Numbered from the stretch's first letter, positions 1-45,777 are shown. The stretch is DNA of 45,777 nucleotides from Candidatus Nanohaloarchaea archaeon (GCA_046539225.1 JBKHHG010000001.1:1-45777), one strand, 5' to 3'. Notes: generated by a model not told the origin, from the sequence alone. Made by a program: numbers and translations.

Positions 1-231
1 ATCTTGACCTCGTATCCTATCTTGCTCAAGGCCTCGAAGAAGTTCTCCTCGCCGGGCGTCTCGCCTTTAATTACATAAGCAGAGGCCCTGATAAGCCTTC
101 TGTTCATTACGGCTGCATCTAAAACTTTTTTGAAGTCTACTTTGCTGTTGTAAAGGTTTTTCGCGCTATAGTACATGTTCTGAACGTCTACAAAGACGCC
201 CACTCTCTGATCTTTGTGTATTTCTGCCATT
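1..231 (-). CDS. NYN/LabA-like (DUF88) domain protein; only the N-terminal 77 aa lie in the window
   Basis: Absent from the ORF track because it runs off the window edge. My reverse-strand translation from the ATG (complement of 229-231) gives MAEIHKDQRVGVFVDVQNMYYSAKNLYNSKVDFKKVLDAAVMNRRLIRASAYVIKGETPGEENFFEALSKIGYEVK. The 'VGVFVDxxN' opening is typical of NYN/LabA-fold proteins. Confidence 0.7.
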
Positions 232-344
232 TTTTATCTTACCTGAATTAGTGTCAAACAAGTAGTTCAGTTTGCGGGGAAGAAAGTTATAACGCTGCGG
301 TACGCCCCACCAACCATTTATTTGTTTATACCCTGAAGTAGTAT

Positions 345-662
345 ATGCAGGTTAACGAAGCAACGAGAAGAGAAGTCTTGAAGCTTTTAGGCCTTGGAGC
401 GGCTTCTGCAGCCGCCTCAACAGTAGAACTCTCAGAATGCAACGATATCGAGATCATGCTTGAGGAGACAGGCCTCAACACCTCTCTCGGAACACAGTAC
501 GAATTGAAAATACAGGGCGCTGATTCAGTGGAGCTCTATGAAAAAGGAGAGAAGATAGGAGAGTACAGCGACACCGACCACGTCATAATCCCTGAAGGGG
601 AGTACGTCTTCCGTATCGTAAAAAACGGCTGTAGTTATAACGAGACAAGACAACTGGATTAG
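345..662 (+). CDS. small secreted hypothetical protein with a twin-arginine (Tat) signal
   Basis: 105-aa ORF. The N-terminus 'TRREVLKLLGLGAASAAAS' matches the Tat consensus (S/T-R-R-x-F/V-L-K plus a hydrophobic stretch). An A/T-rich TATA-like element (317-330) lies about 20 nt upstream of the ATG. Confidence 0.6.
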   Translation: MQVNEATRREVLKLLGLGAASAAASTVELSECNDIEIMLEETGLNTSLGTQYELKIQGADSVELYEKGEKIGEYSDTDHVIIPEGEYVFRIVKNGCSYNETRQLD

Positions 663-1499
663 CTACTTTTTCAAGGCCTTGATCTTTTCGATGTTCTCGC
701 CGTAACCCCGGGAATCAGAGGTAGGAGTCTCCAGAATCATCGGAAGATCTTTGAAGGCCTGACTGTTCACAACGTTTTCAAAGCCTTCTTCCCCGATCTC
801 TCCCTCACCGATATGCTCGTGGTTGTCCTTCTCCGATCCGCGTTCATCCTTTGAATCGTTTAGATGCAAGAGTTCAACGTTTTCAAGGCCTAAATCCTGT
901 TCGATCTCCTGGATCATGTCCTGAAAGCCTTCTCGCGTTTTCAGGTCATAGCCTGCGGCATGTGCGTGACAGGTGTCGATGCAGATACCAACATTTTCCT
1001 GTTCCACGCCTTCAACCATCTGCCTCAGCTCTCCAAACGATCTGCCGAGAGTGGTGCCTTTACCCGCCGTGTTTTCGAAAAGAAGAGTCACAGAATCCGG
1101 GATCTTTAGATCGTTTACCGCAGAAACTATAGTATCTATCCCGGAACTTCTTCCAGAGCCTGTATGCGCACCAGGATGAAAGACAACGAATTCAACGCCC
1201 AGATTTCCCGCGGCATAAAGCTCGTCCTGAAGACAGGCCTTTGACTTTTCCAAGAGATCATCTTTAGGCGTCGCAAGGTTCACCAGGTATGTAGAATGTA
1301 TTACGTAAGGCCTCTGTCCCGACTCCTCTTTACCTTTCCTAAACTTTGAGGCCTCTTCATCCGAGTACTGTTTCACGCTCCATGTCCTCGGTGACCCAGC
1401 AAAGATCTGGCCGCAGTTGCCGCCCACCTCTTCCTGCCTTTCAAATGCTTTGTCAGCTCCTCCCGAGACACTTACATGCGCACCTAATCTAAAACTCAT
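663..1499 (-). CDS. nfo: endonuclease IV (AP endonuclease, deoxyribonuclease IV)
   Basis: 278 aa. Metal-binding motifs seen: 'HSTYLVNL', 'VFHPGAH', 'ICIDTCHAHAAGYD', 'LHLNDSK', 'HEHIGEGEIG'. Confidence 0.92.
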   Translation of the reverse strand: MSFRLGAHVSVSGGADKAFERQEEVGGNCGQIFAGSPRTWSVKQYSDEEASKFRKGKEESGQRPYVIHSTYLVNLATPKDDLLEKSKACLQDELYAAGNLGVEFVVFHPGAHTGSGRSSGIDTIVSAVNDLKIPDSVTLLFENTAGKGTTLGRSFGELRQMVEGVEQENVGICIDTCHAHAAGYDLKTREGFQDMIQEIEQDLGLENVELLHLNDSKDERGSEKDNHEHIGEGEIGEEGFENVVNSQAFKDLPMILETPTSDSRGYGENIEKIKALKK

Positions 1500-1558
1500 A
1501 GTTACTGATTACGCCTCCAGATTGAAATACCTTCAATACCCAATTTTTTGACCGGGAC

Positions 1559-2362: not shown

Positions 2363-2398
2363 AACTTTCGATAGAGGGAAAACTCCAAAAAAGCTTTT

Positions 2399-2956: not shown

Positions 2957-3014
2957 GAATAATAAGCTGGTAAAAATTTCTAAATATCTTTTTGCCAAAA
3001 AAAGGAAAAAGTGG

Positions 3015-3605: not shown

Positions 3606-3665
3606 AGAATCACCTTTAACACGTTTTTCTCAGGCAGCGGTAAGAATCTTTGGGTTTAAAGATGT

Positions 3666-3695
3666 AAGAAAAAAGTTAGCGGAACTTGTCCGCTA
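3666..3695 (-). terminator. hairpin plus oligo-T terminator downstream of the 3693-4364 gene
   Basis: On the minus strand: UAGCGGA-CAAGU-UCCGCUA (7-bp stem, 3677-3695, containing the stop codon) followed by ACUUUUUUCUU (3667-3677). Confidence 0.5.
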
Positions 3696-4364: not shown

Positions 4365-4417
4365 GTATATACCCAAGTATAGCAATTTTATAAAACTAAA
4401 CAGTTTAACTCAGCGGC

Positions 4418-4444: not shown

Positions 4445-4714
4445 TGGGGGCGACAGGATTTGAACCTGCGACCTACCGCTTTCCCCAACGATCTTCTGAA
4501 AGATCGATCATCAGGAACCATTCTTTGAATGGCTCGGAGAGATTTAATCATCGGAACACGAAGGCTTCAAGGCCTTCTCGAACTGACACGCAGAAGCGGG
4601 TCAGTGTTCCTCATCCCTCCAGTCACAGAGAGATGGCTGGAAAGCCATCATACACTGTTAACTGCTGTAGCAGTTACTGGAGGCGGTCGCTCTCCCAAGC
4701 TGAGCTACACCCCC
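4445..4714 (-). tRNA. tRNA-Trp (anticodon CCA) with a ~196-nt intron at the canonical 37/38 position; no encoded CCA tail
   Basis: Hand-folded. The 5' exon (4714-4677) is GGGGGUG-UA-GCUC-AGCUUGGGA-GAGC-G-ACCGC-CUCCAG. The 3' exon (4480-4445) is A-GCGGU-AGGUC-GCAGG-UUCAAAU-CCUGU-CGCCCCC-A. Acceptor, D, anticodon and T stems all pair, and the anticodon CCA is at 4678-4680. The splice junctions fit a bulge-helix-bulge: C32-C35 pair with GGGG at the intron 3' end, flanked by 3-nt bulges (A36-G37-U and A-A-A38). Confidence 0.9.
4481..4676 (-). ncRNA. tRNA-Trp intron: long, multi-hairpin RNA with box C/D-like motifs
   Basis: Motifs in RNA sense: GUAUGAUGG (4645-4653), CUGA (4601-4604), CCGAUGA (4548-4554), CUGAUGA (4508-4514). 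CUGGAGG (4616-4622) is complementary to anticodon-loop nucleotides 31-37. Several 6-9 bp hairpins are present, and the stem GGAACAC/GUGUUCC (4604-4610/4553-4559) encloses two of them. Confidence 0.55.
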
Positions 4715-6608: not shown

Positions 6609-7256
6609 CTATATGTCCTCGGCTTTGGCTTCTTCCCTGATTCTTTCCAAGGCCTCCACTTGTCTTCCGAGTCTTTCCTCGGCAGCTTCTCTCGCTGTAT
6701 CGAAATGGAAATCTTCGAGTTCTGATTCGAGTCGAGGCCTTCCCTTCTCCTCAAAGTAGCTGAAAGTATCTTCTAAAGGCCTTTCCTCGTCTGACGCGTA
6801 GTGGAACATTCTCCAGAGATCCGAGACGCCGTACTTCGCCAGTCTGTCCGCATCCTGCAAAATTTTTCCCTCAACAGTTTCAGGCCTTGAATGGTGGTTT
6901 CCCACGACTTTTTCCACCGTCCTGATTCTTCCATCGGTTAAAACGTCTTCAACGTACTCTCTTACCATGTCTGCACTTCTCTCCGGGTGTCCTTCATGGC
7001 CCTCGAACGGGTCCATGTAGCCATCCTCGATATCCTGTTTTCTACCGATATCGTGGAAGAGCGCCGCAACCTCAAGCACTCTCTTATCGATGTCGAGGCC
7101 TTCACTTTCAGCGATCTTTTTCGAGGCCTTGTACACGGACTCGAGATGGTAGTACCTGAAGTCCCGGCCGCCAGCTTTCTCGTAGTAACCGGAGAACTCC
7201 TGCTTCAACCGGTTCTTCAGCTTTTCGACCTCTTCCGTGGAAAGGCCTTCACTCAT
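6609..7256 (-). CDS. HD-domain metal-dependent phosphohydrolase
   Basis: 215 aa. Contains 'AALFHDIGR' (the HD motif) and downstream 'GHEGHPERS' / 'GNHHS' histidines. Its start overlaps the stop of the upstream PEBP gene by 8 nt. Confidence 0.8.
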   Translation of the reverse strand: MSEGLSTEEVEKLKNRLKQEFSGYYEKAGGRDFRYYHLESVYKASKKIAESEGLDIDKRVLEVAALFHDIGRKQDIEDGYMDPFEGHEGHPERSADMVREYVEDVLTDGRIRTVEKVVGNHHSRPETVEGKILQDADRLAKYGVSDLWRMFHYASDEERPLEDTFSYFEEKGRPRLESELEDFHFDTAREAAEERLGRQVEALERIREEAKAEDI

Positions 7257-7686
7257 AGCGGCCTCTCAGCTCCGCCTTTTCTATTATATGGTCTTCCATC
7301 GCGTCCTCAACTTCTTCCTTATTTTTCCCTTCCTCAAGGCCTAACTCGGTGTCCAGGGCGTAAAGCTTGAACAGGTAGGTGTGTTCGCCGTCCGGCGGGT
7401 TCGGCCCGTTGTACCCGGTTTCTCTGAAATCTGTGACTCCCTCAATGCCGGGGCTTTCGCCCGGTTCAATCCGATTTGTTGAGGCCTCTATATCGTAGAC
7501 CACCCAGTGATCCCAGATCTTTCCCGCGGGCTCCATCGCATCAGGATCGTCCATAATCAGAACCAGGGAAGAGGCCTCCTCGGGGACACCGGAGACGCGA
7601 AGTTCAGGGTTTACGTTTTGCTGCATGTAGCCGACTTTATCCGGCATTTCATCGCCGTCTTCAAACTCGGGGCTCTCCAGTCTCAT
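7249..7686 (-). CDS. YbhB/YbcL family Raf-kinase-inhibitor-like (PEBP) protein
   Basis: 145 aa. 'NVNPELRVSGVP', 'VLIMDDPDA', 'WDHWVVYDI', 'GYNGPNPPDGEHTYLFKLYALD' are characteristic of the prokaryotic PEBP family. Confidence 0.88.
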   Translation of the reverse strand: MRLESPEFEDGDEMPDKVGYMQQNVNPELRVSGVPEEASSLVLIMDDPDAMEPAGKIWDHWVVYDIEASTNRIEPGESPGIEGVTDFRETGYNGPNPPDGEHTYLFKLYALDTELGLEEGKNKEEVEDAMEDHIIEKAELRGRYE

Positions 7687-7771
7687 GCACCGGGTTTGTA
7701 TCCAAAGATATTTGTGGTTTTTTGCTGTGTTTTTCGTAAGTTATTAAGGCATTCAACCCCAAATTTTGTGT

Positions 7772-8287
7772 ATGACTGGTTACGACGTTGACAACGTGCT
7801 GGACAGGCCTGTTCCATATGAAATCCTTCGGCAGATCCATCTTAGAGATGGAGGCACCTACCATGTGCAGCTTAACCTGAAGGCGGGGATCGACCAGCAG
7901 CTTGCCAGAGAGATAATCCAGGTTCTTGAAGAAGCGGGTATACTTTACAGGGTGGAGAACACGGATCCACAGCTTTTCGACGTTAACTACTCCGTATTCC
8001 CGGATATCTGGGAGGATCTCTGGATCGAAGAGCTTGCCGATGTCCCGACAACCCCGGTGCATTTCGGGACTTTCATCGAGAACTACGTGAAATCATATCT
8101 TGACACGGAAGAGGCCTCAAACATTAGAGAGATGCTTGTCGACGAATTCTTCCTCGCATTGAACAGGGAGAACGAAAACCTGATTCCCAAGGATTTTGAA
8201 GAGCTTCTCCAGGAGATCTCGGAACAGTACGAAGGCAAAAAAGCCGCCCACCAACACATAAGAGACGCACTGAACCAGACTGGTTGA
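7772..8287 (+). CDS. hypothetical protein
   Basis: The ORF track starts at a TTG (7766). An ATG at 7772 ('MTGYDVDN...') is more likely. No motif recognised. Confidence 0.55.
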   Translation: MTGYDVDNVLDRPVPYEILRQIHLRDGGTYHVQLNLKAGIDQQLAREIIQVLEEAGILYRVENTDPQLFDVNYSVFPDIWEDLWIEELADVPTTPVHFGTFIENYVKSYLDTEEASNIREMLVDEFFLALNRENENLIPKDFEELLQEISEQYEGKKAAHQHIRDALNQTG

Positions 8288-8288
8288 C

Positions 8289-9284
8289 ATGGAAAAAGCA
8301 GTTGTCGCAGGAGCAGGGTTTGCAGGGATCCAGGCCGCGTTCTCACTGGCACGGAAAGGATACAACGTAGAGATAATCGACAGGTCTGAAAAACACGTCT
8401 TCAGGCCAGGACTCATCGACCTCGTAAGAAGAACTGGGAAAGAAAAAATCCAGGTAGATCTTGAAAAACTGTTTGAAGACAGTTCAGTAGACTTCTTTCA
8501 GGAAGAAATAACCTCGATAAACCCAGAAGAAAAAACCGTTGAAGCCGGCAGAACCCATGAATACGACTACCTTGTGCTTGCGCTCGGCGGCGAACCCATC
8601 ATCCCCGAAGGCCTCGAAGAAGCAAATATACCATACACGACAGAAGAGGCCTCAAAACTGGGAGAAATGGATGGATCAGCCGCGATCATCGGAGCAGGCT
8701 ACACAGGCCTTGAATACGGGTTTGAGCTCTCGGAGAAAGGCCTCGACGTTTCAGTCTTCGAGGCGGAGACCAGGCCTCTACCCGGTTTCTCCAGGAAAGT
8801 ATCGGAAAAAGTTCTGGACTCCTTACATGGAAAGCTGAAGTTTAGAGGCGGAAAACATATTTTCTCAGTGACGGATGGAAGAATAGAGTTTGAAGAAGGA
8901 GAGGAAAACTTCGACCACGTAATAGTCTGCATCGGCGTCAAGAGAAACTCGTTGATCGACAGATGCTTCGAAGACTTCAGGGTTAACTCAGGCCTATGCT
9001 GCGTTCAATACCCGGATATCTTCGCCGTCGGCGACTCAAGCTATGTAAACCGGAATACCGCCCACAACGCCATTATAGAGGGTAGAAAAGTCGCGGAAAA
9101 CATTGACAGGGATGAAAGCCAGGAGCTAAAACCTATCGAGGTGGAGCAGCCCGGCTTTCTGCTTTCAGCGGGGAAGACAGGCCTCTACATCAGAGGAGAC
9201 AGGGTCTTCAAGAGCAGAATCTTCCGGTACGTGAAGGACGCGGTGAGGAAACTCTACTTTTTCAGGCTGAGGAAAAAGGCCTGA
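8289..9284 (+). CDS. pyridine nucleotide-disulfide oxidoreductase family flavoprotein (NDH-2 / SQR-like)
   Basis: 331 aa. Two Rossmann motifs ('VVAGAGFAGIQAA', 'AAIIGAGYTGLEYG') and a C-terminal 'IFAVGDS'. Confidence 0.72.
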   Translation: MEKAVVAGAGFAGIQAAFSLARKGYNVEIIDRSEKHVFRPGLIDLVRRTGKEKIQVDLEKLFEDSSVDFFQEEITSINPEEKTVEAGRTHEYDYLVLALGGEPIIPEGLEEANIPYTTEEASKLGEMDGSAAIIGAGYTGLEYGFELSEKGLDVSVFEAETRPLPGFSRKVSEKVLDSLHGKLKFRGGKHIFSVTDGRIEFEEGEENFDHVIVCIGVKRNSLIDRCFEDFRVNSGLCCVQYPDIFAVGDSSYVNRNTAHNAIIEGRKVAENIDRDESQELKPIEVEQPGFLLSAGKTGLYIRGDRVFKSRIFRYVKDAVRKLYFFRLRKKA

Positions 9285-9294: not shown

Positions 9295-9813
9295 CTAATG
9301 TAGAGATGCCTCTCTTTTCTCAACATCCAGCGCGAAAAGTGCGTAGCCGACCTCCTCGGTGGAAAACTCTTTTTCCTTGCTGATTTTTCGAATTTTTTCA
9401 ATCATTTTCACGTAGTCAAAGGCGTCGAAGCTTTCCTTTCTCTCATTAAAGAATCCGAGTCTTTCAAGCGAGGCCCATACCCTTGTATCCACGACGGCGT
9501 GGCGCTCAGGATTCAAGACGGTTAAAATCACGGATGCAGTAGGAGCTTTAAAGCCTTTAAGAGAAGTTAGAAGCGCTATCTTCGAGAAATCGCCTTCAAC
9601 CCTCTCAAGATTGTTAATTACCTGGTCGCAGAGCTTTTCAGGGTTTTTCCTGACGTGGTGGGCGCTCCGGGTTGAGGCCTCATACGCAAGTTCGTAGAGA
9701 TCCTGCCGGGAAAGCTGCTTTCCTCGGTACTCCTCAAGTTTTTCCGGTAGAAGGCCTTGAGTCCGGGAGTAGTAGTCAAGATACCGGTCTATATCAAAAT
9801 CCTCGAGATCCAT
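9295..9813 (-). CDS. hypothetical protein (possible helix-hairpin-helix-like segment)
   Basis: 172-aa ORF. 'GFKAPTASVILTVLNPERHAVVDTRVW' resembles HhH segments of DNA-binding or glycosylase-like proteins, but this is a weak by-eye impression. Confidence 0.5.
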   Translation of the reverse strand: MDLEDFDIDRYLDYYSRTQGLLPEKLEEYRGKQLSRQDLYELAYEASTRSAHHVRKNPEKLCDQVINNLERVEGDFSKIALLTSLKGFKAPTASVILTVLNPERHAVVDTRVWASLERLGFFNERKESFDAFDYVKMIEKIRKISKEKEFSTEEVGYALFALDVEKREASLH

Positions 9814-10750: not shown

Positions 10751-12157
10751 TTAACCTTCCAGTATCTTCAGAAAAGCATCCAGTAAGCTGTAGAACTGTT
10801 CGATCAATCTGTTGAGGCCTGTACTTTCAAGTCTGCGCTCCGGAAGATCCATTCTTTCAACCTCTATCGAATCATTCCCCGAGTAATCCGCAGCCCTGAC
10901 CTCAAAGCTGTGACTGTTTAAATCGTCAAGACAGCTTTCAAACCTTTCACGAGTCTCTTCATTGCAGGGCTCGAGCTCTGCAACCTCTGAAAACCTGCTC
11001 CATTTTTCATCCGCTGAATCAGTTGTTGAACCGTCTACTTCTGTGTAAAGGGCTGATATATTGCCGTTTTCCATCAAGTAATTCTTGACTATTAGCTCGC
11101 CGTAGGCGTAGCCGAAGCTTCTCTCCTCATGCTCGGGCGACCAGTTCTTCATAAAGTCCTGATCGTTGCTATAGTAGTTCCAGAGCTTTTCACGGTCGCC
11201 ACGGGATGGAACCGTGTAACGGTAGCCGCCCTGAACATATGTCTCTTCTTCCCCAAAAAGCTGTCCAGGCCTCTCCTCGATCTCGCCTTCGCTGTACAGT
11301 TTTTTCTGCATCATTTTCTCAGCGTGTTTAGCGATTCCTTCCTCTATGTAAGACGTCCGTGTACGGTCCCAGTCAAGATAATCGTTGCTCAGGGCGTGTA
11401 CAGTTTCATGTGTTAAAACCATCTTCTCTTTATCATCATTCTTTCTCATATGTATTATTCCCGATCTGTAGAGGCCTGCACTCCATTCGAAACCGAGATC
11501 GCTGGAATCCTCGCTGTAAAGCGCTACAGGAATCTTTTGAAATCTGGGTTTAAGGCCTACCGTTCCGAGCGCAACCCTGTAACTGTCTGTAGAGTTTATA
11601 CTGCCGTTAAAGAACTCGTAGTACTCTGTAGTGTTGCCTCTGCCAAAGTTAAAGACAATATTTGCGGCTCCTTCCCCTTTAAATCTCATTTCATCGGTGA
11701 AGGAGGCCTGGAGGCCTCTGTTTGTATCGCCCGAGATCAAGTCTTCTGCTTTTACTATACCGGAGGTTTCATGGTCTTTGAAACCGGAGAACGATATTTC
11801 ACGGGTGTAAAGACCTTGCTTTATTTCTTCGGCGTCTCTGTTGATTCGGTAGTTTATCTTGACTGTTTCATTGGTTCTTTTCGGGCCTTTATTGGTTTTC
11901 AGCTGGAGCAGGCCTGATTCAAGGCTGTAGTCCTCTATCTCTCCGAGTGAGTCGTTTATCTGGTTGATCTCCGATCCTTCCGGCATACGATACCTAAGGC
12001 TCCAAGTGTTGACTCCTTCCTCTGATTCAAGGCCTATGGTTGTATTCAGTTGTATCTGGTCTCTGTCGGCGTCGAGGGAGTGAAAGCTCTGGGACGCCGC
12101 GAAACCCGAGAATACAAGCGCTGCGGACAGCAGGGTTAGAAGGGTTCTGGTCTTCAT
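10751..12157 (-). CDS. secreted putative zinc metalloprotease (HExxH)
   Basis: 468 aa. Sec-type signal 'MKTRTLLTLLSAALVFSGFAASQS' and an HExxH motif 'LTHETVHAL', followed by 'YIEEGIAKH'. The family is not recognised beyond the motif. Confidence 0.6.
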   Translation of the reverse strand: MKTRTLLTLLSAALVFSGFAASQSFHSLDADRDQIQLNTTIGLESEEGVNTWSLRYRMPEGSEINQINDSLGEIEDYSLESGLLQLKTNKGPKRTNETVKINYRINRDAEEIKQGLYTREISFSGFKDHETSGIVKAEDLISGDTNRGLQASFTDEMRFKGEGAANIVFNFGRGNTTEYYEFFNGSINSTDSYRVALGTVGLKPRFQKIPVALYSEDSSDLGFEWSAGLYRSGIIHMRKNDDKEKMVLTHETVHALSNDYLDWDRTRTSYIEEGIAKHAEKMMQKKLYSEGEIEERPGQLFGEEETYVQGGYRYTVPSRGDREKLWNYYSNDQDFMKNWSPEHEERSFGYAYGELIVKNYLMENGNISALYTEVDGSTTDSADEKWSRFSEVAELEPCNEETRERFESCLDDLNSHSFEVRAADYSGNDSIEVERMDLPERRLESTGLNRLIEQFYSLLDAFLKILEG

Positions 12158-13000: not shown

Positions 13001-13735
13001 ATGAGGCCTGTGGATTCTCACTGCCATCTCCAGTTCGAGCAGTTCGACACTGATCGGGAAGAAGTTGTCAAAAGTATCGAGGAAGGCCTGGATTCCGCGG
13101 TTGTCGCAGGCATAGATCCTGTTGAAAATGAAAAAGCGGTTGAGACCGCAGAAATGTCTTCACAACTTTCCTGCTGTTTAGGCCTCCACCCGCTGCACCA
13201 CGAAAAAAGCCTGGAAAAGGTTCGGCAGCAGATCCAGAGTTTTGATCCTGTGGCGGTGGGCGAGATAGGCCTCGACTACAACTACATAACCGGTAAAAAG
13301 GAAAGAGAGGAGACCGAGAAAGTTTTCAGGCGGATGCTTGAGATCACGGAGGAAGAGGGTTTAAACGCTGTAATCCATTCAAGAAACGCGGAACAGAAGG
13401 CCTTCGAGATAGTGAAAGAATACGATGTCACAGGTTTTTTCCACTGCTTCAACGGCAGGCCTGAACTTGCCTCGGAAATAGCTGAGAAACACTTTGTCGG
13501 CGTGACCACACAGGTAGTAGACTCTACACGGGTCCGGAACATAGTCAAGGAAGTAGGCATGGACTCTATGCTTGTTGAAACCGATTCGCCGTATTTAGGC
13601 CTTGATGGGCGTAACACGCCGTTGAACGTTTCCCGGGTTGTAGACGAAATCGCGGATCTGAAGCAGCTGGAGCGTGAAAAAGTTGTTGAAGCTACACGAA
13701 GGAATTCGAGAAATTTTTTTGAGGCAGGTCATTAA
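13001..13735 (+). CDS. TatD family metal-dependent hydrolase/DNase
   Basis: 244 aa. 'VDSHCHL', 'VGEIGLDY', 'VIHSR', 'GFFHCFNG', 'LVETDSPYL'. Confidence 0.88.
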   Translation: MRPVDSHCHLQFEQFDTDREEVVKSIEEGLDSAVVAGIDPVENEKAVETAEMSSQLSCCLGLHPLHHEKSLEKVRQQIQSFDPVAVGEIGLDYNYITGKKEREETEKVFRRMLEITEEEGLNAVIHSRNAEQKAFEIVKEYDVTGFFHCFNGRPELASEIAEKHFVGVTTQVVDSTRVRNIVKEVGMDSMLVETDSPYLGLDGRNTPLNVSRVVDEIADLKQLEREKVVEATRRNSRNFFEAGH

Positions 13736-18844: not shown

Positions 18845-21517
18845 TTACTGGATTCTTTCCATGACCTGCTGGTGAAGTTTCTGGAGTCTTTCCTTCTTGT
18901 CCTCCATTTTCACCACGTCGGTGCTTCCCTGGAGCAGCAGGTTGTGGCTGAAAGGCGAGGGTATATCGGTTTCGTGGACGCTGACGTCTATGCCTTGTTG
19001 GAGGCCTTCGATCACTTCTTCGGCGTGAGGCAGGTCCATTGCATCCTCCATGATCTCCCGATAGGTTTCCTGCACCATCGGAAACTCTTCCCCATGATGC
19101 TGGTTTCTGATTGCGGAGAGCAGGAAGTGGCCTTTCATCTGTTGCTGGCCTACAGTCTTTGAGTTTCCCTGGTAGTTTCTGAGTATCATCAGCGAGCGAC
19201 CGGCTACATGCCTGAACCTTCTCTTCATCATTTCGGTTTTCTTAACAGCTGCTCTCAGTTCTTCTTCCGCGTCGCATTCAGCCAGGTCTTTTAGAAGGCC
19301 TTCAACGTCTACAGGCCTTCTCGGCGTCTGGAGTATAAAACCGTTGTCGTCTATGATCATTCCGATGTTTGCGCCAAACTTTCTCTGGAGGAGGTGTGCC
19401 AGGATCCGGGCGAGTGCGTCGTGAACTCTTCTGCCGTAGACAGTATGGAAGATAATGTTCTGCCGGTTCTCCTCGTCGATGTACTTCTCTACAGTTATCT
19501 TTTCATGGTGGGAGACTTCACCCAAGAAGCTGTACTGCTGGTCGATATAACTGTACAAGGCCTCGGCGGTGTACTCATCGAGGTAGTAGTTATGCATTAT
19601 CCACTGGATGATTTCGTCTTCAGAAGCGTTCATCTCGAGCTGTTCACCTACTTTTTTCCTGAACTCTCCGATCTTGATCCCGAGATCATAGCTGAGAGGT
19701 AGGCGTTCGCTGTACCAGGATGGAACTGTAGGAGAGGCCTTCGGCTTGGGGTCGACGAATACCTTCATGCCTTTGGCGTACCTGAACTCGTAGGTTGAGC
19801 CTCCAAGCGTGAAGATGTCTCCTTTTGTGAGACGGTCCAGGAACTCTTCGTCCAGGCTTCCGACAAAGTTCTTCTCTCCTCTTGTCACTACGTCATAACC
19901 TGTTTCATCGGGTATCGTGCCGATGTTTGTCATGTATATTACACGGGTCATCTTGCCTGAACGCCCGAACAGGCCTTCCTCTCTGTCAATCCAGATCTTC
20001 CGGTATACGTTCTGATCCTCAAGCTCGTACTCTCCGCCGAGATACTTCAACACCGAGTCGTACTGTTCTCGCTCCAGGCCTCTGAAGCAGTGGGATCTTC
20101 TTACAACGTTGAACGCGTGTTCGATGCTCCAGCGATGATCGCAGGCCATTCCAACGATATGCTGTGCCAGTACATCGAGACAGTTCTCCGGTATCCGGAT
20201 TCTGTCCAGCTCGTCTTCCTTGGCGCATTTCGTCAACACTGAGCATTCCATCGCATCATCCCTATCCGTGACAATCATCTTTCCCTTGGCTTTCTTCCCG
20301 ATTTTATGGCCTGAACGCCCGATTCTCTGGATTCCACGGGCGACGCCTTTCGGTGAGCCAAGCTGCAACACAAGATCGACGGCTCCGATGTCAACCCCGA
20401 GCTCTAGAGAAGTAGAGGTGACACCGACACGCATCTCTCCCTTTTTCAATTTTTCCTCTACTTTCAGTCTTTCTTCCCGGCTCATCGAGGAGTGGTGGGC
20501 GCCGATGTTCTCGTCGTAGACTTCAAACATGTTCTTCAGGTTGTTGACAACCCTCTCAGTCGCGCTCCTCGTGTTCGTGAAGATTATCGTGGATTCGTGC
20601 TCCTGGACCAGGTTATGGATTCTGTCATACATCGCATCCTGGATCTCGTTTCCCGGCGTAAAGATCAGATCCCGGACCGGCGAGACCGTCTCAATATCAA
20701 TCTCCTTTGAAGCAGCGACATCGACAATCTTGCAGCCTCTCGTCCTGTAATCCTTTTCTGAGGCCTCATCCGCCATCTCAACGGTTTCATACTCTGTCTC
20801 TTTCTCCCAGACATCTTCTTCAGCTTCAAATCCTACAAGATACGATGCAATATCTTTTATAGGGGCCTGAGTGGCAGAGAGGCCTATCCGTGTAATATCC
20901 TGGTTTGAAAGCTCTTCAAGTCTTTCAAGAGATAGCGAGAGATGTACTCCTCTCTTGTTTTCGGATAGGCTGTGAATCTCATCGACTATGGCGTACTCAG
21001 CGCCTCTCAGGCTTTCCCTGAACTTTGGAGAGCTCAGGATTATCCCGAGGGATTCCGGTGTCGTGATCAAGATGTGAGGCGGTTTTTCCCGCATCGAGGC
21101 CTTCTCTGCGTCGGTGGTGTCGCCGGTTCTCACCGCGCTTCTTACCTCCGGAACCTCTACATCTTTCTGCTCGGCCTTCTGTTTTATGCCTTTCAGAGGA
21201 TCTTCAAGGTTTCTCTGGATATCATTGTTTAAAGCTCTGAGAGGCGATACATAGACAGCGTATATCCTGTCGTCGAGCTCGCCTTCCTCGCCTTTCCTGT
21301 AAAGCTCATTAAGCACGGACAGAAAAGCTGAAAGAGTTTTTCCGGATCCTGTAGGGGCGCAGATCAGTGAGTTCTCATTGCTGTGTATAAGATCGAAGGA
21401 GTACTTCTGCGGAAGACTCAGGGAGGAAAAACTGTCGTTGAACCAGTCCTTGACATAGGGCTGGAAATCCTCCGGCAGGTCCTCGTTGCCTTCACCTTCA
21501 ACAAACTCTATGCCCAT
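18845..21517 (-). CDS. lhr: Lhr-type ATP-dependent DEAD/DEAH-box helicase (with a DEAD/H-associated C-terminal domain)
   Basis: 890 aa. 'CAPTGSGKTL' (Walker A), 'VDEIHSL' (motif II), 'GLSATQ', 'HHSSMSRE', 'TSTSLELGVDIG', 'QRIGRSGH'. Size and the long C-terminal extension are typical of Lhr. Confidence 0.88.
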   Translation of the reverse strand: MGIEFVEGEGNEDLPEDFQPYVKDWFNDSFSSLSLPQKYSFDLIHSNENSLICAPTGSGKTLSAFLSVLNELYRKGEEGELDDRIYAVYVSPLRALNNDIQRNLEDPLKGIKQKAEQKDVEVPEVRSAVRTGDTTDAEKASMREKPPHILITTPESLGIILSSPKFRESLRGAEYAIVDEIHSLSENKRGVHLSLSLERLEELSNQDITRIGLSATQAPIKDIASYLVGFEAEEDVWEKETEYETVEMADEASEKDYRTRGCKIVDVAASKEIDIETVSPVRDLIFTPGNEIQDAMYDRIHNLVQEHESTIIFTNTRSATERVVNNLKNMFEVYDENIGAHHSSMSREERLKVEEKLKKGEMRVGVTSTSLELGVDIGAVDLVLQLGSPKGVARGIQRIGRSGHKIGKKAKGKMIVTDRDDAMECSVLTKCAKEDELDRIRIPENCLDVLAQHIVGMACDHRWSIEHAFNVVRRSHCFRGLEREQYDSVLKYLGGEYELEDQNVYRKIWIDREEGLFGRSGKMTRVIYMTNIGTIPDETGYDVVTRGEKNFVGSLDEEFLDRLTKGDIFTLGGSTYEFRYAKGMKVFVDPKPKASPTVPSWYSERLPLSYDLGIKIGEFRKKVGEQLEMNASEDEIIQWIMHNYYLDEYTAEALYSYIDQQYSFLGEVSHHEKITVEKYIDEENRQNIIFHTVYGRRVHDALARILAHLLQRKFGANIGMIIDDNGFILQTPRRPVDVEGLLKDLAECDAEEELRAAVKKTEMMKRRFRHVAGRSLMILRNYQGNSKTVGQQQMKGHFLLSAIRNQHHGEEFPMVQETYREIMEDAMDLPHAEEVIEGLQQGIDVSVHETDIPSPFSHNLLLQGSTDVVKMEDKKERLQKLHQQVMERIQ

Positions 21518-27123: not shown

Positions 27124-27431
27124 GAGATACATTGCAGATCTATTCTTTCTCCAGGCCTTGTCATTGTAACGTTGAAGCAGTTCAGGCTGTTGGAGTATAA
27201 AACTTCTGATCTGTAGTCAGTGTATCCCACAAGCTTTCTGAAGTTCTGCCTTTCGAGTCTTGTAGGCGTACTGGAAGTTATTTTTTCTGCTTCATCCTGT
27301 ACAGACACGATATGGGGTGAAGTGTCTTCTACATCGAATTCACGGGTCTGTACGTCGGAGACTACGGATGCTACAGTCATAACTGTCAGAGCGACGATAA
27401 CCGCAGATATAAGCATGAACTGGGCCTTCAC
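27120..27431 (-). CDS. small prepilin-like protein (class III signal peptide), last gene of the pilus operon
   Basis: I prefer the second GTG (27431), giving 'MKAQFMLISAVIVALTVMTVASVV'. This has the same MKA/Q leader as two upstream pilin genes and forms a GTGA overlap with the preceding stop. Confidence 0.6.
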   Translation of the reverse strand: MKAQFMLISAVIVALTVMTVASVVSDVQTREFDVEDTSPHIVSVQDEAEKITSSTPTRLERQNFRKLVGYTDYRSEVLYSNSLNCFNVTMTRPGERIDLQCIS

Positions 27432-29134
27432 TCCGACCACCTCAGGTTTATCTTGTACGGCATGTACACATCTTCTTTTATTCCTCCGATGGCCGAGGTT
27501 GAGACCTCTTCAGGCTGTACGCGGCCTTCAAACCTTACCTCATTGTTCAAGAGGTAGTATATCGAGGATGCTACAGTTTTTCTCTGGTCTTCGTTGTATG
27601 TATGATTGTGGCCGAGCAATGCGAGCTGGTCGCCGTTGAAGGTCTTGAAGCTTGCGGTGTTAGGCATCAGTTCAATGTTTTGCTGTCCCTGTGCTTTAAA
27701 GTCGGCGCATTCGCCTTCAGTTCCGCAGCCCACCAGATCTATAGAGTATTCCCTGTTCGCGACTTTGACTGACTCGCCGTTCAGGTAGAAATCGCTGTCG
27801 TAGCCTGAGCCGTTGAAGTCGAAGATTAACGCCCGGCTGTTGCAGGAGTCTCCGACCGCTATATTCAGGAAATCGATGGGGGAAGAGTCTTCAAAGTCGA
27901 CCGTGCCCTCATATGAATCTGAGCAATCTGTAGGATTCGTGCCTCCCGGGCTCATCCCTGTAACCGATCTATCCCACTCGGAGAAGTCGTACTTCGTGGA
28001 GCTTGAGTAGATCGTCTGTGAGGCCTCGAGCCTGGAGCTGGTGTTGGAAACCACTTTTCCAGGTGGGTATAGCTGGAAGTTCGGATCGCCATCGAGACCC
28101 AGGTAAAGGGTTTTGATGTCGAGCGAAGGCCTTTCAGAGGAGAAAGCTGCATCTACCGCGCCTGAACCATAGCCAGACCTGTCAGTGTCTATCCATTCGA
28201 AGCCTGTCTCTTCAAGGAGGCCTGAGTCAAGGTCGTCTTCCTCTGGATTCATTAACAGAAGTACGGGCTTCGACACCAGGTGAGATATCACCGTGTCCAT
28301 ATTGGAGTTTATATCAGGCAGGGAGTCTCTCTCCGGGAAGATCAGTATGCTGTAGTCGGAGTTCTCTATCTCGTTGAAGTCAACCATGTCGACATGTGTC
28401 GATGTCTCTATACCGTTTACCTCCTGGTTGAGGATATTCTGGATTCTGCGGGGCTGTGAGGCCTTGTAGAAGGTTGATTCTCCGGCGCCGGTATCTATAC
28501 TGTGGAACTCGAAGAAGTCGGAGGGATCGGAGTTCTCCGAGTCGCCCCAGTAGAATATCTGGTCCAGGTAGAAAGGCCCGTCACTTGATGAAAACTGGCA
28601 CTGCTGTGTGCCGTTGTCAACCCAGAGCGTGTCGAATCCCGAGGTATCGACCTCTACGCCTTTAGGATTCGTATTTGCAAAGTAGAGCCGCACCCCATAA
28701 TCTTCTTCAAGGCCTCCGCTCGTCCTGTAGATCTCGGATGTCTCCGCAAACCTTTTGAGCTCCTGGAGCTCGCCGTGGCAACGGTCTCCCGAGTCTACTT
28801 TAACAATATCCTGATTTTCACGTTTGTCTTGTACCGCAAAGTATCCTATATCGATTTGAGAGATCGGAAGGTTGGATACCGCGCCTGAAACCTCCATATC
28901 TCTGTCAGATATCTCTGTGATAGAGGTTTGGAGGCTTCCGAGCTCTCCACGGCTGAGAAAACTGGTTAAATGGCCTGAGGCCTTCATCGACCGTGTCAGA
29001 TCCTGGGAGGCTACTTCTCTCTGGAAATCGTCCCAGTCCTGGTCAGGGTTTGAAACCTCTACAGCCCCGAAGATAAACATGAATACTATAGCAGACGCCA
29101 TCATCGCCTCCAGAGCATATCCGAGGCCTTTCAC
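27428..29134 (-). CDS. large (568 aa) prepilin-like protein, putative tip or adhesin subunit
   Basis: The GTG start at 29134 (GTGA overlap) gives 'MKGLGYALEAMMASAIVFMFIFGAV'. The rest is acidic and predicted extracellular, with many N-x-S/T sequons. Confidence 0.6.
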   Translation of the reverse strand: MKGLGYALEAMMASAIVFMFIFGAVEVSNPDQDWDDFQREVASQDLTRSMKASGHLTSFLSRGELGSLQTSITEISDRDMEVSGAVSNLPISQIDIGYFAVQDKRENQDIVKVDSGDRCHGELQELKRFAETSEIYRTSGGLEEDYGVRLYFANTNPKGVEVDTSGFDTLWVDNGTQQCQFSSSDGPFYLDQIFYWGDSENSDPSDFFEFHSIDTGAGESTFYKASQPRRIQNILNQEVNGIETSTHVDMVDFNEIENSDYSILIFPERDSLPDINSNMDTVISHLVSKPVLLLMNPEEDDLDSGLLEETGFEWIDTDRSGYGSGAVDAAFSSERPSLDIKTLYLGLDGDPNFQLYPPGKVVSNTSSRLEASQTIYSSSTKYDFSEWDRSVTGMSPGGTNPTDCSDSYEGTVDFEDSSPIDFLNIAVGDSCNSRALIFDFNGSGYDSDFYLNGESVKVANREYSIDLVGCGTEGECADFKAQGQQNIELMPNTASFKTFNGDQLALLGHNHTYNEDQRKTVASSIYYLLNNEVRFEGRVQPEEVSTSAIGGIKEDVYMPYKINLRWSE

Positions 29135-29964
29135 CAAGTCAGCACCTCCATCTTCACTACATCAGTCGAACTTGAAGAATCCTCCATAAGAGGATACCTG
29201 TTTAGTTTTGCCCGGGTTCCCTCAGCGGCATCAGGACTTCTCCCAACATGTTTGAGATGAGAGCTCAACACTATAGAAGCTCCAGGCCTTCTATCCCTGT
29301 TCTGAATCTTTTCGATCGTAAAGGTTCTACCCCCCGCAGTAAATGTATCGCCCTCCGTCTTAGGATCGGCCGAAAAGTCCCAGTCAAAGGTTGTCACATA
29401 GGTCGTGTTGTAGCTGCCGTCGAAGGCCGCCATCAGAAACCTGATGTCCTGTCCTTCCAAAGTAGTCTCTCCGTAATGGATCCTGTTCTGGGCGTTACTG
29501 TAGTACCCTGAATTCGGCTCATCTATATCAGGGTCTGAAGGCGGGTCTCCCCGGATAAAGTTTCTATGTGTCTCCACCACAGGATGCCAGGTAAAGTTGA
29601 AGCTGTACCGGTGTTCAAGGCCTAAATCTTCTACCATATTGCTGTAGTTGTAGTGGCCGGGTTCAGCAGTCTCAAGCATAGCCAGTTTGGACCGGTCGAT
29701 CCGCATCTCTTCCGAGGCAAGGCCTAACATCTCAGTGTCTTCAGGATGGTTCTCCCAGTCTGTTCCTCCACTGCCGTTTGAATGGCGGCCCTCCGAGTTC
29801 AGGATCAGGTCGGTGGTCTTCTTGGCCTCAAGGTTTTTCTCGGTTGTGCCAGCATAGGTGTTGAACTGGGGAATATCCGAAAGTGTTACCGTTAATACTG
29901 CTACAAGCACAGCGAGAAAGAACAGGAAGGATCCTGAGAACTCCAGTGTTGTCTGTCCTTTCAT
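29131..29964 (-). CDS. prepilin-like protein (class III signal peptide)
   Basis: 277 aa. In 'MKGQTTLEFSGSFLFFLAVLVAVLTVTL', the KG/Q cleavage context with Glu at +5 resembles Methanococcus Epd pilins. Confidence 0.65.
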   Translation of the reverse strand: MKGQTTLEFSGSFLFFLAVLVAVLTVTLSDIPQFNTYAGTTEKNLEAKKTTDLILNSEGRHSNGSGGTDWENHPEDTEMLGLASEEMRIDRSKLAMLETAEPGHYNYSNMVEDLGLEHRYSFNFTWHPVVETHRNFIRGDPPSDPDIDEPNSGYYSNAQNRIHYGETTLEGQDIRFLMAAFDGSYNTTYVTTFDWDFSADPKTEGDTFTAGGRTFTIEKIQNRDRRPGASIVLSSHLKHVGRSPDAAEGTRAKLNRYPLMEDSSSSTDVVKMEVLTW

Positions 29965-36740: not shown

Positions 36741-36776
36741 AAGATAAGAGAAAGAAACGAGGCCTTAGACAGGCCT
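36741..36776 (-). terminator. AGGCCT-AGGCCT hairpin plus T-rich tract downstream of the thermosome gene
   Basis: Minus strand: UAA-AUCCUCCUUUA-AGGCCU-GUCUA-AGGCCU-CGUUUCUUUCUCUUAUCUU. The two palindromic hexamers (36771-36776 and 36760-36765) form a 6-bp stem. Confidence 0.5.
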
Positions 36777-40346: not shown

Positions 40347-40348
40347 CT

Positions 40349-43049: not shown

Positions 43050-43190
43050 ATTGTATGTTGGTACGGTGAAATCTTAAGAATGTAAACTTGAGGCCTTTAC
43101 TGCAGGTCTCTATTTAAAAAAGTAGGCCTCGGTCTTGTATCTGTAAGCTTTGCAAAAACTGCAGAAGTATTTCGAATTAAGGTTTTTACT

Positions 43191-44504: not shown

Positions 44505-44515
44505 GACTTTACTCG

Positions 44516-44556
44516 AGGCCTGTTTTAGGCCTTAATCTTTCTTATTTTATTTTAAT
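44516..44556 (+). terminator. AGGCCT-GTTTT-AGGCCT hairpin plus T-rich tract between convergent genes
   Basis: The hexamers at 44516-44521 and 44527-44532 form a 6-bp stem 12 nt after the rnj stop, followed by TAATCTTTCTTATTTTATTTTAATTT. Confidence 0.5.
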
Positions 44557-44568
44557 TTCTAACAAATA

Positions 44569-45777
44569 TTATCCGTAATATTCTAACAAAATCCATCCAT
44601 GGCCGTCACTACTCCCACCATCAGTTGCAGTTCCACTATCAACTACAAGAGAACTATTAATCTCTTGGCCTCCATTATCCCCGGCTTCATCAGCGTCTCC
44701 GCCTGTACCTCCTTGACAATTAAGAGAACCACAGTCAACACTCTCACCAGATTCACCATTATCTTGGAAACCTGAGCCTCCTGAACCGGCTCTAGCACCC
44801 CCTCCACCAGCATATCCAACATCATTACCGCTACCTCCCCCTGCTTCAGCGGCAGCAACAAACGCAGAATCAGAGTTCAGCCATATCTCTGTTGATCCTC
44901 CGCCTGCACCAGCCTGTCCTGAACCACCACCTATACCCCCGTTAGATCGGCCCCACCCCTCACTATCTGAGGCTGACTCTCCTTTTTCACCAACCCAGAT
45001 CGAAATAGTGGAGTAATTAGAAACATCTACCCTGTATTCCTCAAGATAACCTCCTGAGCCTCCCTCTTTATTATCGTATTCGTCACCGTCAGCACCATGC
45101 ATTTCTACTATTTTAATCTCTTCAACAGATTCCGAAAAACCACTATCTAGATCAATTTGATAACCATCATCTCCTGCAGTAGTCTCGTTAACTTGTACAT
45201 CACCTGAATCATCATAGGTATAATTCACAGTGTCAAGTAGAGTCAAACTTCCGCCATTGTCGTCATCTCCGCCTTCATCTCCAGAACTGCCATCGTTATT
45301 ATCATTCTCTTCGTGATCATCTTCTGGTAGGCCTTCATAACCGCCAGAATCCGTTAACTCCAAATCACCAGAAACAGTACCGCTTTGACTCAAATTAGAC
45401 AAACTACCGCTATCATAAGTAACTTCCACATCCAATGAATTACTCCCATCACCACGAGACACATTAGGCAACTCAAAAACCTTATCACTACCCACAGAAA
45501 CCCCATTCTCACTCTCAAACTCCTTAAAAACCCACTCACCGCTGTCAGGATCGGAAACATTAACTCTAGAAACAACAATCTCATCATCCGCACCATTACG
45601 CATAGAAAGGCCTAATTCATCATCACCGGAAATACCAAAATCCTCAACAACCACATCATTACCAGAAAAACCACTCACAGAATCGGTCGATTGATTGCCT
45701 ACAGTAGAAAATATAGCACCTCCAGCTATCGCAACAACCAGAAGCATCCAGCCATAAGTCATTAGGTACTCGATAGC
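44569..45777 (-). CDS. prepilin-like protein fused to a glycine-rich (ALK/LTK GRD-type, Pfam Gly_rich-like) domain; 5' end beyond the window
   Basis: The reading frame stays open upstream of the track Met, reading ...AIEYL-MTYGWMLLVVAIAGGAIFSTV. 'EYLxTYGW' plus a hydrophobic helix is a typical archaeal class III signal/pilin N-terminus, so the true start is off-window. The C-terminal half shows the pattern 'MHGADG...GGSGGYLEEY..ISIWVGEKG...SNGGIGGGSGQAGAGGGSTEIWL...FVAAAEAGGGSG...YAGGGGARAGSGG'. Confidence 0.7.
   Translation of the reverse strand, partial: AIEYLMTYGWMLLVVAIAGGAIFSTVGNQSTDSVSGFSGNDVVVEDFGISGDDELGLSMRNGADDEIVVSRVNVSDPDSGEWVFKEFESENGVSVGSDKVFELPNVSRGDGSNSLDVEVTYDSGSLSNLSQSGTVSGDLELTDSGGYEGLPEDDHEENDNNDGSSGDEGGDDDNGGSLTLLDTVNYTYDDSGDVQVNETTAGDDGYQIDLDSGFSESVEEIKIVEMHGADGDEYDNKEGGSGGYLEEYRVDVSNYSTISIWVGEKGESASDSEGWGRSNGGIGGGSGQAGAGGGSTEIWLNSDSAFVAAAEAGGGSGNDVGYAGGGGARAGSGGSGFQDNGESGESVDCGSLNCQGGTGGDADEAGDNGGQEINSSLVVDSGTATDGGSSDGHGWILLEYYG

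Follow-up and report, generated by a model that had tools for sequence, protein, structure and literature searches.

The stretch of DNA considered here comprises positions 1-45777 of JBKHHG010000001.1 in the assembly GCA_046539225.1 of a Candidatus Nanohaloarchaea archaeon (45,777 bp, GC 48.9%; referred to below as the window), and the subject of this account is the short palindrome AGGCCT, which is scattered over it in very large numbers. Open reading frames (ORFs) cover 94.7% of the window. Among the genes are those for a thermosome, GatD/GatE, an archaeal RNase J, RFC and an Lhr helicase, together with a type-IV-pilus-like locus. The closest relatives of the thermosome all belong to the Nanohaloarchaeota, a group of the DPANN archaea, and share up to 86% identity with it in GTDB species genomes and up to 92% in metagenome proteins. 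A contig of GCA_046540895.1 matches the window at 99.7% identity, and a Logan assembly does so at 99.9%.

AGGCCT occurs exactly 232 times in the window, very close to the number of about 230 that had been estimated by eye in a preliminary description of this DNA. The base composition predicts 10.6 copies, so that the roughly 20-fold excess claimed there is in fact 22-fold (Poisson P ~1e-217). AGGCCT is the most frequent hexamer of the window. No other palindromic hexamer is enriched more than 2.7-fold, the figure reached by the runner-up AAGCTT, and the most enriched words after AGGCCT are those overlapping it, such as GAGGCC and GGCCTT. The excess belongs to the full hexamer, as had been stated, since each of the GGCC variants with a single correct flank has merely 10-18 copies; the A...T flanks are found, however, on 232 of the 353 GGCC tetramers (66%) rather than on three quarters of them. 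T is indeed rare immediately 5' of the site (11% at position -1). Over positions -10 to -2 there is a weak preference for T at -3 (0.42), with slight shifts at -4 and -5.

The expected number of copies rises with the order of the Markov model, from 10.6 (order 0) and 12.8 (order 1) to 35.7 (order 2) and 96.7 (order 3). A ratio near 1 under a maximal-order model had been named beforehand as evidence against the excess, and at order 4 the expectation is 214 and the ratio 1.08, so that taken to the letter this check goes against it. We nevertheless judge the check to be uninformative. By arithmetic on the flank counts, the 232 copies of the motif account for most of the AGGCC words (267) and most of the GGCCT words (283). 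The order-4 model is thus conditioned on the very signal that it should test, and it has no power here.

The sites are spread over the whole window, with 9-21 in every 3-kb bin and a spacing of 197 bp in the mean and 155 bp in the median (coefficient of variation (CV) 0.86). Their first positions are 29, 389, 470, 674, 755, 886, 1235, 1308, 1349, 1561, 1699, 1980, 2023, 2042, 2203, 2511, 2697, 2925, 3017, 3328, 3469, 4066, 4078, 4132, 4570, 4720, 4755, 5236, 5331, 5409, 5749, 5788, 6372, 6413, 6462, 6650, 6735, 6777, 6882, 7096, 7124, 7243, 7337, 7482, 7572, 7805, 8112, 8609, 8647, 8705, 8738, 8772, 8990, 9179, 9277, 9675, 9752, 9929, 10067, 10106, 10307, 10343, 10547, 10593, 10715, 10740, 10815, 11267, 11472, 11553, 11704, 11712, 11910, 12030, 12983, 13004, 13084, 13180, 13267, 13398, 13457, 13597, 13995, 14241, 14373, 14682, 14747, 14952, 15087, 15152, 15198, 15299, 15479, 15513, 15682, 15922, 16050, 16082, 16434, 16572, 16932, 17075, 17253, 17529, 17655, 17976, 18067, 18127, 18212, 18447, 18554, 18709, 18761, 19002, 19296, 19313, 19558, 19735, 19971, 20076, 20761, 20880, 21097, 21568, 21885, 21952, 21984, 22008, 22128, 22174, 22391, 22577, 22614, 22793, 22816, 23003, 23158, 23585, 23658, 23896, 24151, 24249, 24517, 24567, 24800, 25015, 25070, 25337, 25491, 25898, 25957, 26096, 26198, 26356, 26663, 26759, 27153, 28021, 28127, 28218, 28459, 28710, 28978, 29124, 29284, 29618, 29720, 29981, 30339, 30831, 30849, 31700, 31780, 32190, 32386, 32426, 32585, 33478, 33546, 33762, 33778, 34261, 34450, 34618, 35084, 35422, 35559, 35597, 35775, 35867, 36058, 36374, 36399, 36760, 36771, 37011, 37182, 37600, 37936, 38500, 38690, 38750, 38792, 38833, 39102, 39427, 39694, 39934, 40061, 40160, 40351, 40551, 40704, 40903, 40995, 41208, 41388, 41995, 42067, 42141, 42279, 42804, 42848, 42889, 43091, 43124, 43598, 44018, 44516, 44527, 45329 and 45608.

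When the synonymous codons were shuffled within each gene, a procedure that keeps the proteins and the codon usage (the latter being itself inflated by the motif), 36.8 ± 5.6 copies were expected in the ORFs against 218 observed, a 6-fold excess. The sites fall in all three codon phases, 48, 67 and 103 of them in phases 0, 1 and 2, against 8.9, 11.6 and 16.3 after shuffling. The examples that had been given hold in both position and phase: AGG-CCT (Arg-Pro, phase 0) at 13004..13009 on the plus strand in a TatD-like gene (13001-13735), xAG-GCC-Txx (phase 1) at 9277..9282 on the plus strand in the gene at 8289-9284, and xxA-GGC-CTx (Gly-Leu, phase 2) at 29124..29129 on the minus strand in the gene at 27428-29137. 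The non-coding DNA has 15 sites in 2.4 kb, or 6.2 per kb compared with 5.0 per kb in coding DNA, and one site does lie within the intron of a tRNA-Trp gene (4570-4575). Confinement to a single phase, the pattern by which codon and dipeptide usage could have accounted for the excess, is absent, as every phase and the non-coding DNA are enriched. The codon-aware null is the decisive one: the excess persists when codon usage and proteins are held constant, and the pressure is on DNA and not on protein, as the preliminary description had argued.

The strength of this pressure is best seen at the positions where the protein sequence leaves the motif available as a synonymous choice. AGGCCT occupies 48 of the 55 Arg-Pro contexts (phase 0; 6.3 expected from codon usage), 62 of the 78 [K/Q/E]-Ala-[F/L/S/Y/C/W] contexts (phase 1; 9.2 expected), and 103 of the 131 x-Gly-Leu contexts in which the preceding codon can end in A (phase 2; 11.9 expected). 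Overall about 81% of the permissive contexts are filled, 79-87% in the individual phases, compared with about 10% by codon usage; in five other motif-rich genomes the occupancy is 63-79%. An occupancy of about 0.8 over a baseline of about 0.1 would correspond to a scaled strength (ln odds ratio) of about 3.6.

These numbers leave hardly any room for explaining the excess through the usage of codons, dipeptides or amino acids, or as an artifact of assembly or adapters. Gly-Leu phase 2 is the commonest, as such an explanation would have it, and the order-4 ratio is 1.08, but the ranking of the phases follows from the numbers of permissive contexts (131, 78 and 55), with the same high occupancy in all three. 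The 6-fold excess over synonymous shuffles, together with the intergenic and intron sites, argues against it as well, and motif-poor orthologues write the same peptides with other codons. An assembly artifact was ruled out, as the enrichment recurs in independent complete genomes from NCBI and in assemblies from JGI, ENA and Logan, four sources in all.

The proteins have not been left untouched. The dipeptide Arg-Pro is 2.1-fold over-represented in the window while Pro-Arg stands at 0.57-fold. In aligned orthologous columns the window has 268 permissive contexts compared with 150 in motif-poor relatives, a ratio of about 1.8, which falls to about 1.2 when the window is compared with other motif-rich genomes. 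The protein sequences have been pulled toward the permissive peptides Arg-Pro, x-Gly-Leu and K/Q/E-Ala-x. One earlier remark does need correction: AGG is by no means an unusual Arg codon here, as it makes up 29% of the Arg codons, and 24% outside the motif; AGA and AGG are the chief Arg codons of the window.

The same enrichment is found in some relatives and is missing in others. The ratio of observed to expected AGGCCT is 22x in the window, 20.7x in Nanosalina VS9-1 (L010), 20x in a metagenome-assembled genome (MAG) from ENA with a GC content of 42% (L086), 17.9x in SG9 (L003), 16.9x in L002, 15x in a JGI genome (L087), 13.7x in Nanohalovita BNXNv (L084; 10.4x in a second region, L208) and 9.3x in L015. 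In sites per kb, the two BNXNv regions contain about 2-3. The L001 lineage has 5.5x (L001) and, in a second region, 9.2x (L209). The ratio is 2.4x in L004, 1.5x in both Nanohalobium constans LC1Nh (L085) and Nanosalinarum J07AB56 (L005), 1.0x in Nanohalococcus SVXNc (L083), and 0.6-2.0x in the deeper nanohaloarchaea (L006-L009). Most other archaeal loci compared have 0-2.4x and three have 2.9-4.7x; the loci of haloarchaea, the host group of the nanohaloarchaea, contain just 0-7 copies per ~12-22 kb. Synonymous shuffling gave a 6-8-fold excess in all phases in each rich locus and none in SVXNc and LC1Nh.

On a neighbor-joining (NJ) tree of eight concatenated proteins, the window groups with L086 and L087 (bootstrap 100%), then with L001 (100%) and then with LC1Nh (92%), and SVXNc pairs with L004 (99%). 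The remaining motif-rich genomes branch outside the window/L001/LC1Nh group. From these positions it follows that the trait was lost at least twice or gained at least twice. The trait is clade-specific, labile and patchy, which is consistent with the gain or loss of one agent.

The L001 lineage gives a picture of what may happen when such an agent disappears. At 44 positions where at least two of the window, L086 and L087 have AGGCCT, L001 has 3 intact sites, 15 with one mismatch and 17 with two. The proportion of positions within one mismatch is 41% in L001 compared with 23% in outgroups (P = 0.04). Of the 15 variants with one mismatch, ten differ by a C>T or G>A change within the GGCC core, and AAGCCT/AGGCTT is at 3.0x across L001. 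It looks as though these sites are decaying after the force was lost or weakened.

The genomes were also compared at positions orthologous to the window sites where the amino acids of the other genome permit the motif. AGGCCT is present at 63-100% of these compatible positions in motif-rich genomes and at 0-12% of them in L001, L004, SVXNc, LC1Nh and J07AB56 (1 of 4 in L007 and 1 of 4 in L008). Close genome pairs have 29-34 sites in common, against 0.2 by chance. In the distant rich genomes the sharing of window sites equals the overall occupancy, with 11/17 against 0.74 in SG9, 6/9 against 0.79 in VS9-1 and 12/19 against 0.67 in BNXNv, and therefore there is no site-specific conservation; the permissive positions have been filled independently.

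The near-misses of the motif are informative about what is being read. The nine one-mismatch classes in the window, covering all six positions, have observed-to-expected ratios of 0.85-1.5 without any position bias. As they are similarly common, there is no privileged inner core, and the A/T flanks are driven too. Compared with motif-poor genomes, the flank variants are up 1.4-3.3x, while the abundant core variants, one transversion class included, are at about 0.65x. Within the species, 3 of the 72 single-nucleotide polymorphisms (SNPs) between the window and GCA_046540895.1 fall in sites, each of them a C/T or G/A transition within the core: at 11553..11558 and 23585-23590 the window has AGGCCT where GCA_046540895.1 has AGGCTT, and at 11811-11816 the window has AGACCT where the other has AGGCCT. 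Purifying pressure on sites within the species was considered and dropped, as 3 SNPs in sites against 2.3 expected give this comparison no power.

These transitions bring to mind repair of the Vsr/Mig type, in which very-short-patch correction of T:G to C:G, coupled to a 5-methylcytosine (m5C) methyltransferase, would be the sole cause of the enrichment. The Mig glycosylase, which is linked to GGCC methylation, is an archaeal precedent for it, AGGCTT and AGGTCT are reduced to about 0.65x when compared with motif-poor relatives, and all three site differences within the species are core C/T changes. Yet transitions make up 55 of all 72 SNPs (76%) regardless, and the transversion variant AGGACT is depleted equally. 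A depletion restricted to the T-for-C variants would be the signature of such repair; what is found is 0.6-0.7x of baseline for T-for-C with the flanks driven as strongly, and the flank variants act like all other neighbor classes. T:G repair cannot make the A/T flanks, and A precedes 232 of the 283 GGCCT words, so it is inadequate as the only cause, a role in which we consider it very improbable. The Dcm/Vsr system of E. coli (CCWGG up, CTAG down) offers a likeness in kind, since there too repair generates the very sequence that it targets and skews oligonucleotide frequencies. Its effect is below about 2-fold, however, and acts on T:G only, which can explain neither the flanks nor a 22-fold excess.

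A further property of the force is that neighboring sites interfere. Permissive contexts with a neighbor site closer than 30 bp have an occupancy of 0.50-0.57, compared with about 0.8 at 30-250 bp (Fisher P = 1e-4). When the occupancy labels were permuted among the real permissive contexts, 31.4 ± 3.5 occupied pairs less than 30 bp apart were obtained against 18 observed, a number reached in 0 of 2,000 permutations (P < 0.0005). The interference vanishes past ~45-60 bp. Taken together, a directional, genome-wide and position-independent force on DNA reads the full symmetric hexamer, drives every position able to accommodate the motif toward AGGCCT, and is weaker in the ~30 bp around a site already present. 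It is old and still active in the lineage of the window; some relatives have lost it or have it in weakened form, and their sites decay chiefly by C>T.

Properties of this kind could also be produced by weak selection on each site, if AGGCCT were bound by an abundant dimeric protein with a nucleoid, architectural, condensation or segregation function and thus formed a code for chromosome structure. A 6-bp palindrome suits a symmetric dimer, the spread of the sites is even by the bin counts and CV given above, the mutual exclusion over ~30 bp resembles a footprint or redundancy between neighbors, the trait has been kept across genera whose synonymous sites are saturated, and HIP1, the hyper-iterated palindrome (HIP) of cyanobacteria, provides a precedent (PMC5861425). 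Against this stand the lack of position-specific conservation, distant genomes having filled their permissive positions independently, and the existence of whole lineages (LC1Nh, L001) without the motif. Selection would have to act on ~5,000 sites, strongly enough to bring about amino-acid changes, the explanation names no candidate protein, and inserted genes work without the motif. We regard it as possible though somewhat unlikely.

The inserted genes just mentioned encode lineage-specific surface proteins (PKD, LamG, Glug; 7867-9726 in L086 and 7541-9902 in L087) and are nearly free of AGGCCT. One of 11 permissive contexts is occupied in the PKD gene of L086 (binomial P ~3e-5) and none of 11 in the Glug gene of L087 (~2e-5). 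Similarly, the first 4 kb of the second BNXNv region (L208, 1-4000), where the annotated genes include those for a MazE antitoxin, DUF6338 and DUF4352, have one site compared with 2-7 per 2 kb elsewhere. The force is slow compared with gene acquisition, and motif density is therefore a clock for recent acquisitions.

Recently acquired DNA that lacks the motif is also a hallmark of the DNA uptake sequences (DUS) of Neisseria and the uptake signal sequences (USS) of the Pasteurellaceae, and AGGCCT could be such an uptake or self-recognition sequence, by which DNA of kin would be preferentially imported or recombined. The parallels are several. DUS and USS have accumulated to thousands of copies through point mutations, skew the peptides that are used, are lacking in foreign islands, and sometimes stand in pairs as terminator hairpins. 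AGGCCT is likewise dense, present in all frames and accompanied by distorted peptide usage, its scarcity in haloarchaeal loci would allow a self discrimination of ~15-fold or more, and the window contains a type-IV-pilus-like locus. It also contains two intergenic inverted pairs, AGGCCT-N5-AGGCCT, each able to form a hairpin followed by a T-rich tail, which look like terminators and recall the DUS pairs of Neisseria. One lies 3' of the thermosome gene (36760..36776, minus strand; -10.2 kcal/mol, z = -3.6) and the other 3' of the RNase J gene (44516..44532, plus strand; -13.4 kcal/mol, z = -2.5), with stems of 6-8 bp (6 bp at 36760-36776).

There are differences as well. Known uptake sequences are asymmetric, 9-12 nt long and served by a demonstrated competence receptor, while the AGGCCT signal is confined to a 6-bp palindrome, and uptake or transformation is not known for its bearers; we know of no demonstration of natural transformation in nanohaloarchaea. 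Relatives poor in the motif have the pilus locus just as well, the hairpin pairs are unconserved (the one after the thermosome gene was not conserved among the relatives compared), and an interference over 30 bp would be odd if the unit of uptake were kilobases. A role in uptake seems unlikely, though it counts, like selection for a DNA-binding protein, as a live rival of the reading favored below. Less probable still, in our view a long shot, is the broader notion that AGGCCT is a dense "self" mark that separates the chromosome of a host-attached DPANN symbiont (~5 sites per kb in the window) from that of its haloarchaeal host. If it were true, the symbiont, which lacks nucleotide synthesis, could import and degrade host DNA, or recombine with the DNA of kin, unharmed, and this would be a new kind of discrimination between self and non-self, made by motif density and not by rare restriction sites.

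The closest likeness is to HIP1 (GCGATCGC) and the alternate cyanobacterial HIPs, which are short GC-rich palindromes enriched more than 15-fold (PMC4390886, PMC5861425). Like these, AGGCCT is over-represented ~15-fold or more, at 22x in the window and at 14-21x in seven related genomes, is found in every reading frame as well as outside genes, and marks a clade in which scattered lineages are without it; the density is self-limiting in both, and both can be debated as products of drive or of selection. The HIP1-like character proposed in the preliminary description is borne out by the occurrence in all phases and in non-coding DNA and by the specificity for the full hexamer. It is not HIP1 proper, which has another sequence and belongs to another domain of life: the host is a DPANN archaeon, the motif is a 6-mer and not an 8-mer, and the density is ~5 per kb compared with ~1 per kb. 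The one-off variants of AGGCCT also lack the asymmetry between inner core and outer bases, and the interference extends over ~30 bp as opposed to ~1 kb. The alternate HIPs of cyanobacteria co-occur with cognate methyltransferases, whereas no cognate methyltransferase of AGGCCT was found in the DNA searched.

The reading we favor, tentatively, and with somewhat less than even confidence, is that AGGCCT is a lineage-specific HIP1-type palindrome of a clade of Nanohaloarchaeota that is kept by a repair ratchet linked to a methyltransferase. The agent would be a dimeric, sequence-specific DNA enzyme, most likely an orphan DNA methyltransferase of the StuI type or a protein derived from a restriction-modification (R-M) system. 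Its mark would bias repair or gene conversion toward retaining the sites that mutation creates and toward undoing the mutations that destroy a site. The motif-rich clade would have arisen when the agent was gained, and the state of L001 and LC1Nh when it was lost, while local damping would account for the 30-bp interference. On this view the excess would be for the most part a side effect of molecular drive and not the sum of ~5,000 individually useful sites.

This proposal has precedents. Elhai connected the cyanobacterial HIPs, HIP1 as well as the alternate ones, with cognate methyltransferases and proposed a methylation-dependent, self-limiting repair ratchet that levels off at a given density (PMC4390886). 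AGGCCT is the target of Type II methyltransferases and the recognition sequence of StuI-type R-M systems, such as the N4-methylcytosine (m4C) system of Alcanivorax borkumensis SK2, which modifies AgGCcT in a genome with 1,674 AGGCCT sites (PMC12128166); enzymes of this type show that dimeric readers of the exact hexamer exist. An active restriction target, however, is not what AGGCCT looks like. It is enriched 22-fold, and no restriction or modification gene was found in the searched sequence. A genome that hosts an active restriction enzyme normally avoids its site or stays near expectation, and so an active cognate endonuclease seems unlikely.

Several observations weigh against a methylation-linked ratchet. 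HIP1 itself has been attributed by Xu et al. to selection, with a role in nucleoid structure and with arguments against biased repair (PMC5861425). A scaled coefficient of about 3.6 would be compatible with drive and with uniform weak selection alike. Repair of the MutS/MutL type may be missing from DPANN archaea. Scans of the window ORFs with Pfam, NCBIfam and PADLOC detected no gene for a methyltransferase, a restriction enzyme or Vsr, and no relevant match to the motifs of C5 and N4/N6 methyltransferases was returned by regular-expression searches of ~200 kb of nanohaloarchaeal loci, about 20-45 kb per genome. For motif-rich BNXNv, a type III system is the sole R-M system in the published annotation, and motif-poor SVXNc has two Dcm-like methyltransferases, with single-molecule real-time (SMRT) data, which cover this strain alone, showing only GDGcHC (PMC10266531, PMC11001535). 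The scant published annotation thus does not show a correlation between methyltransferases and the motif. The supplements of Reva et al. 2023, in the passages that cover motif-poor SVXNc only, did not yield BNXNv_0801.

The GDGcHC system may also have left a trace in the sequence of Ca. Nanohalococcus occultus SVXNc (L083, CP104395.1 722334-743998), where GDGCHC occurs 0 times in 21.7 kb compared with 18-33 times in the nanohaloarchaeal loci examined alongside it. The absence agrees with the active GDGcHC R-M system published for the strain, and avoidance of a site is therefore detectable at this scale. The methods of PMC10266531 cite CP107255 as the SVXNc reference. In the assemblies, the protein of Ca. 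Nanohalococcus occultus (SVXNc) is on CP104395.1, and CP107255.1 carries the one to which NCBI gives the name Ca. Nanohalovita haloferacivicina (BNXNv); the accession in that text was probably swapped.

One gene of the window, at 9295-9813 on the minus strand, was considered as a Mig-like candidate because of its resemblance to OGG-like HhH glycosylases. It does not track the trait, as the L001 lineage, with its decaying sites, has a homologue. The product is a divergent HhH protein of 172 aa with matches to PF21790 and Ogg-HhH, both sub-threshold, that retains the Lys and the Asp of VVDTR aligning to those of Ogg2. It has 599 homologues, and every one whose source is named is nanohaloarchaeal.

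Full-text literature searches on AGGCCT, nanohaloarchaea, palindromes and over-representation turned up no earlier description, and an enrichment that works like a HIP has apparently gone unreported in these archaea. The hyper-iterated palindromes of cyanobacteria have been known for about 30 years, and it is still disputed whether they have a function or are a by-product of repair. AGGCCT adds a second, independent and simpler case, a 6-mer in archaeal genomes of 1 Mb, under a force strong enough to dictate ~80% of the permissive synonymous choices and to alter proteins. The clade is also a natural experiment, with cultured members that have the trait (Nanohalovita BNXNv), cultured members that do not (Nanohalobium LC1Nh and Nanohalococcus SVXNc) and one lineage in decay. 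The responsible gene could therefore be identified simply by its presence and absence, and the choice between drive and function is testable. On the practical side, AGGCCT biases analyses of codon usage, of nonsynonymous to synonymous substitution (dN/dS) and of k-mer binning in these genomes; its scarcity flags recent acquisitions, and StuI is a diagnostic enzyme for the clade.

A few other observations on short words were made along the way. The palindromic hexamers ACTAGT, CGTACG, GCGCGC and TGGCCA have 0 copies in the window against 10-11 expected, while GGTACC, CCTAGG, GCTAGC, GGGCCC and CGCGCG have 1 copy each, and CTAG is at 0.37x in motif-rich genomes compared with 0.57x in poor ones. 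These scarcities may reflect other R-M pressures or dinucleotide biases. Specific avoidance of TGGCCA was rejected, as the rich genomes have 0.56x and the poor ones 0.77x, which points to chance and a general deficit of GGCC. Two candidates for another HIP were set aside as well. ATCGAT in L006 is mostly a matter of Ile-Asp codons (29 observed against 18.8 shuffled). CGATCG in a Halococcoides sp. MAG (L054) has 70 copies in 15 kb, 15x by composition, and is only ~1.8x over a codon-aware shuffle; GATC is raised there too (~1.5-fold over the same shuffle), with the excess of both words in all phases.

A scan of viral contigs for three clustered AGGCCT gave chance matches and one CRISPR-like array only, and is uninformative on the viruses of nanohaloarchaea. 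In the array, at 6700-8430 of the viral-labelled contig IMGVR_UViG_2595698529_000001 (L202), AGGCCTAGGCCT doublets recur each 73 bp over ~1.7 kb. It looks like a CRISPR-like array whose repeat happens to hold the doubled motif, and unrelated to the enrichment in coding sequences.

Within the window itself, the Lhr-type helicase (18845-21517, minus strand) has strong PADLOC scores for DpdJ (E = 2e-143) and BrxHI. Its neighbors (BatA-like, unknown and ThiF) give no hint of a Dpd or BREX system, and the match is probably one of family homology alone. The tRNA-Trp(CCA) gene lies at 4445..4714 on the minus strand and has a 196-nt intron at position 37/38. It was found by ARAGORN with the intron option, having been overlooked by default ARAGORN and by an Rfam scan at the gathering threshold, neither of which detected any RNA gene in the window. 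The intron is unusually long, and by eye it contains C/D-box-like elements (ATGATG...CTGA, CTGATGA) that recall the euryarchaeal tRNA-Trp intron encoding a guide sRNA.

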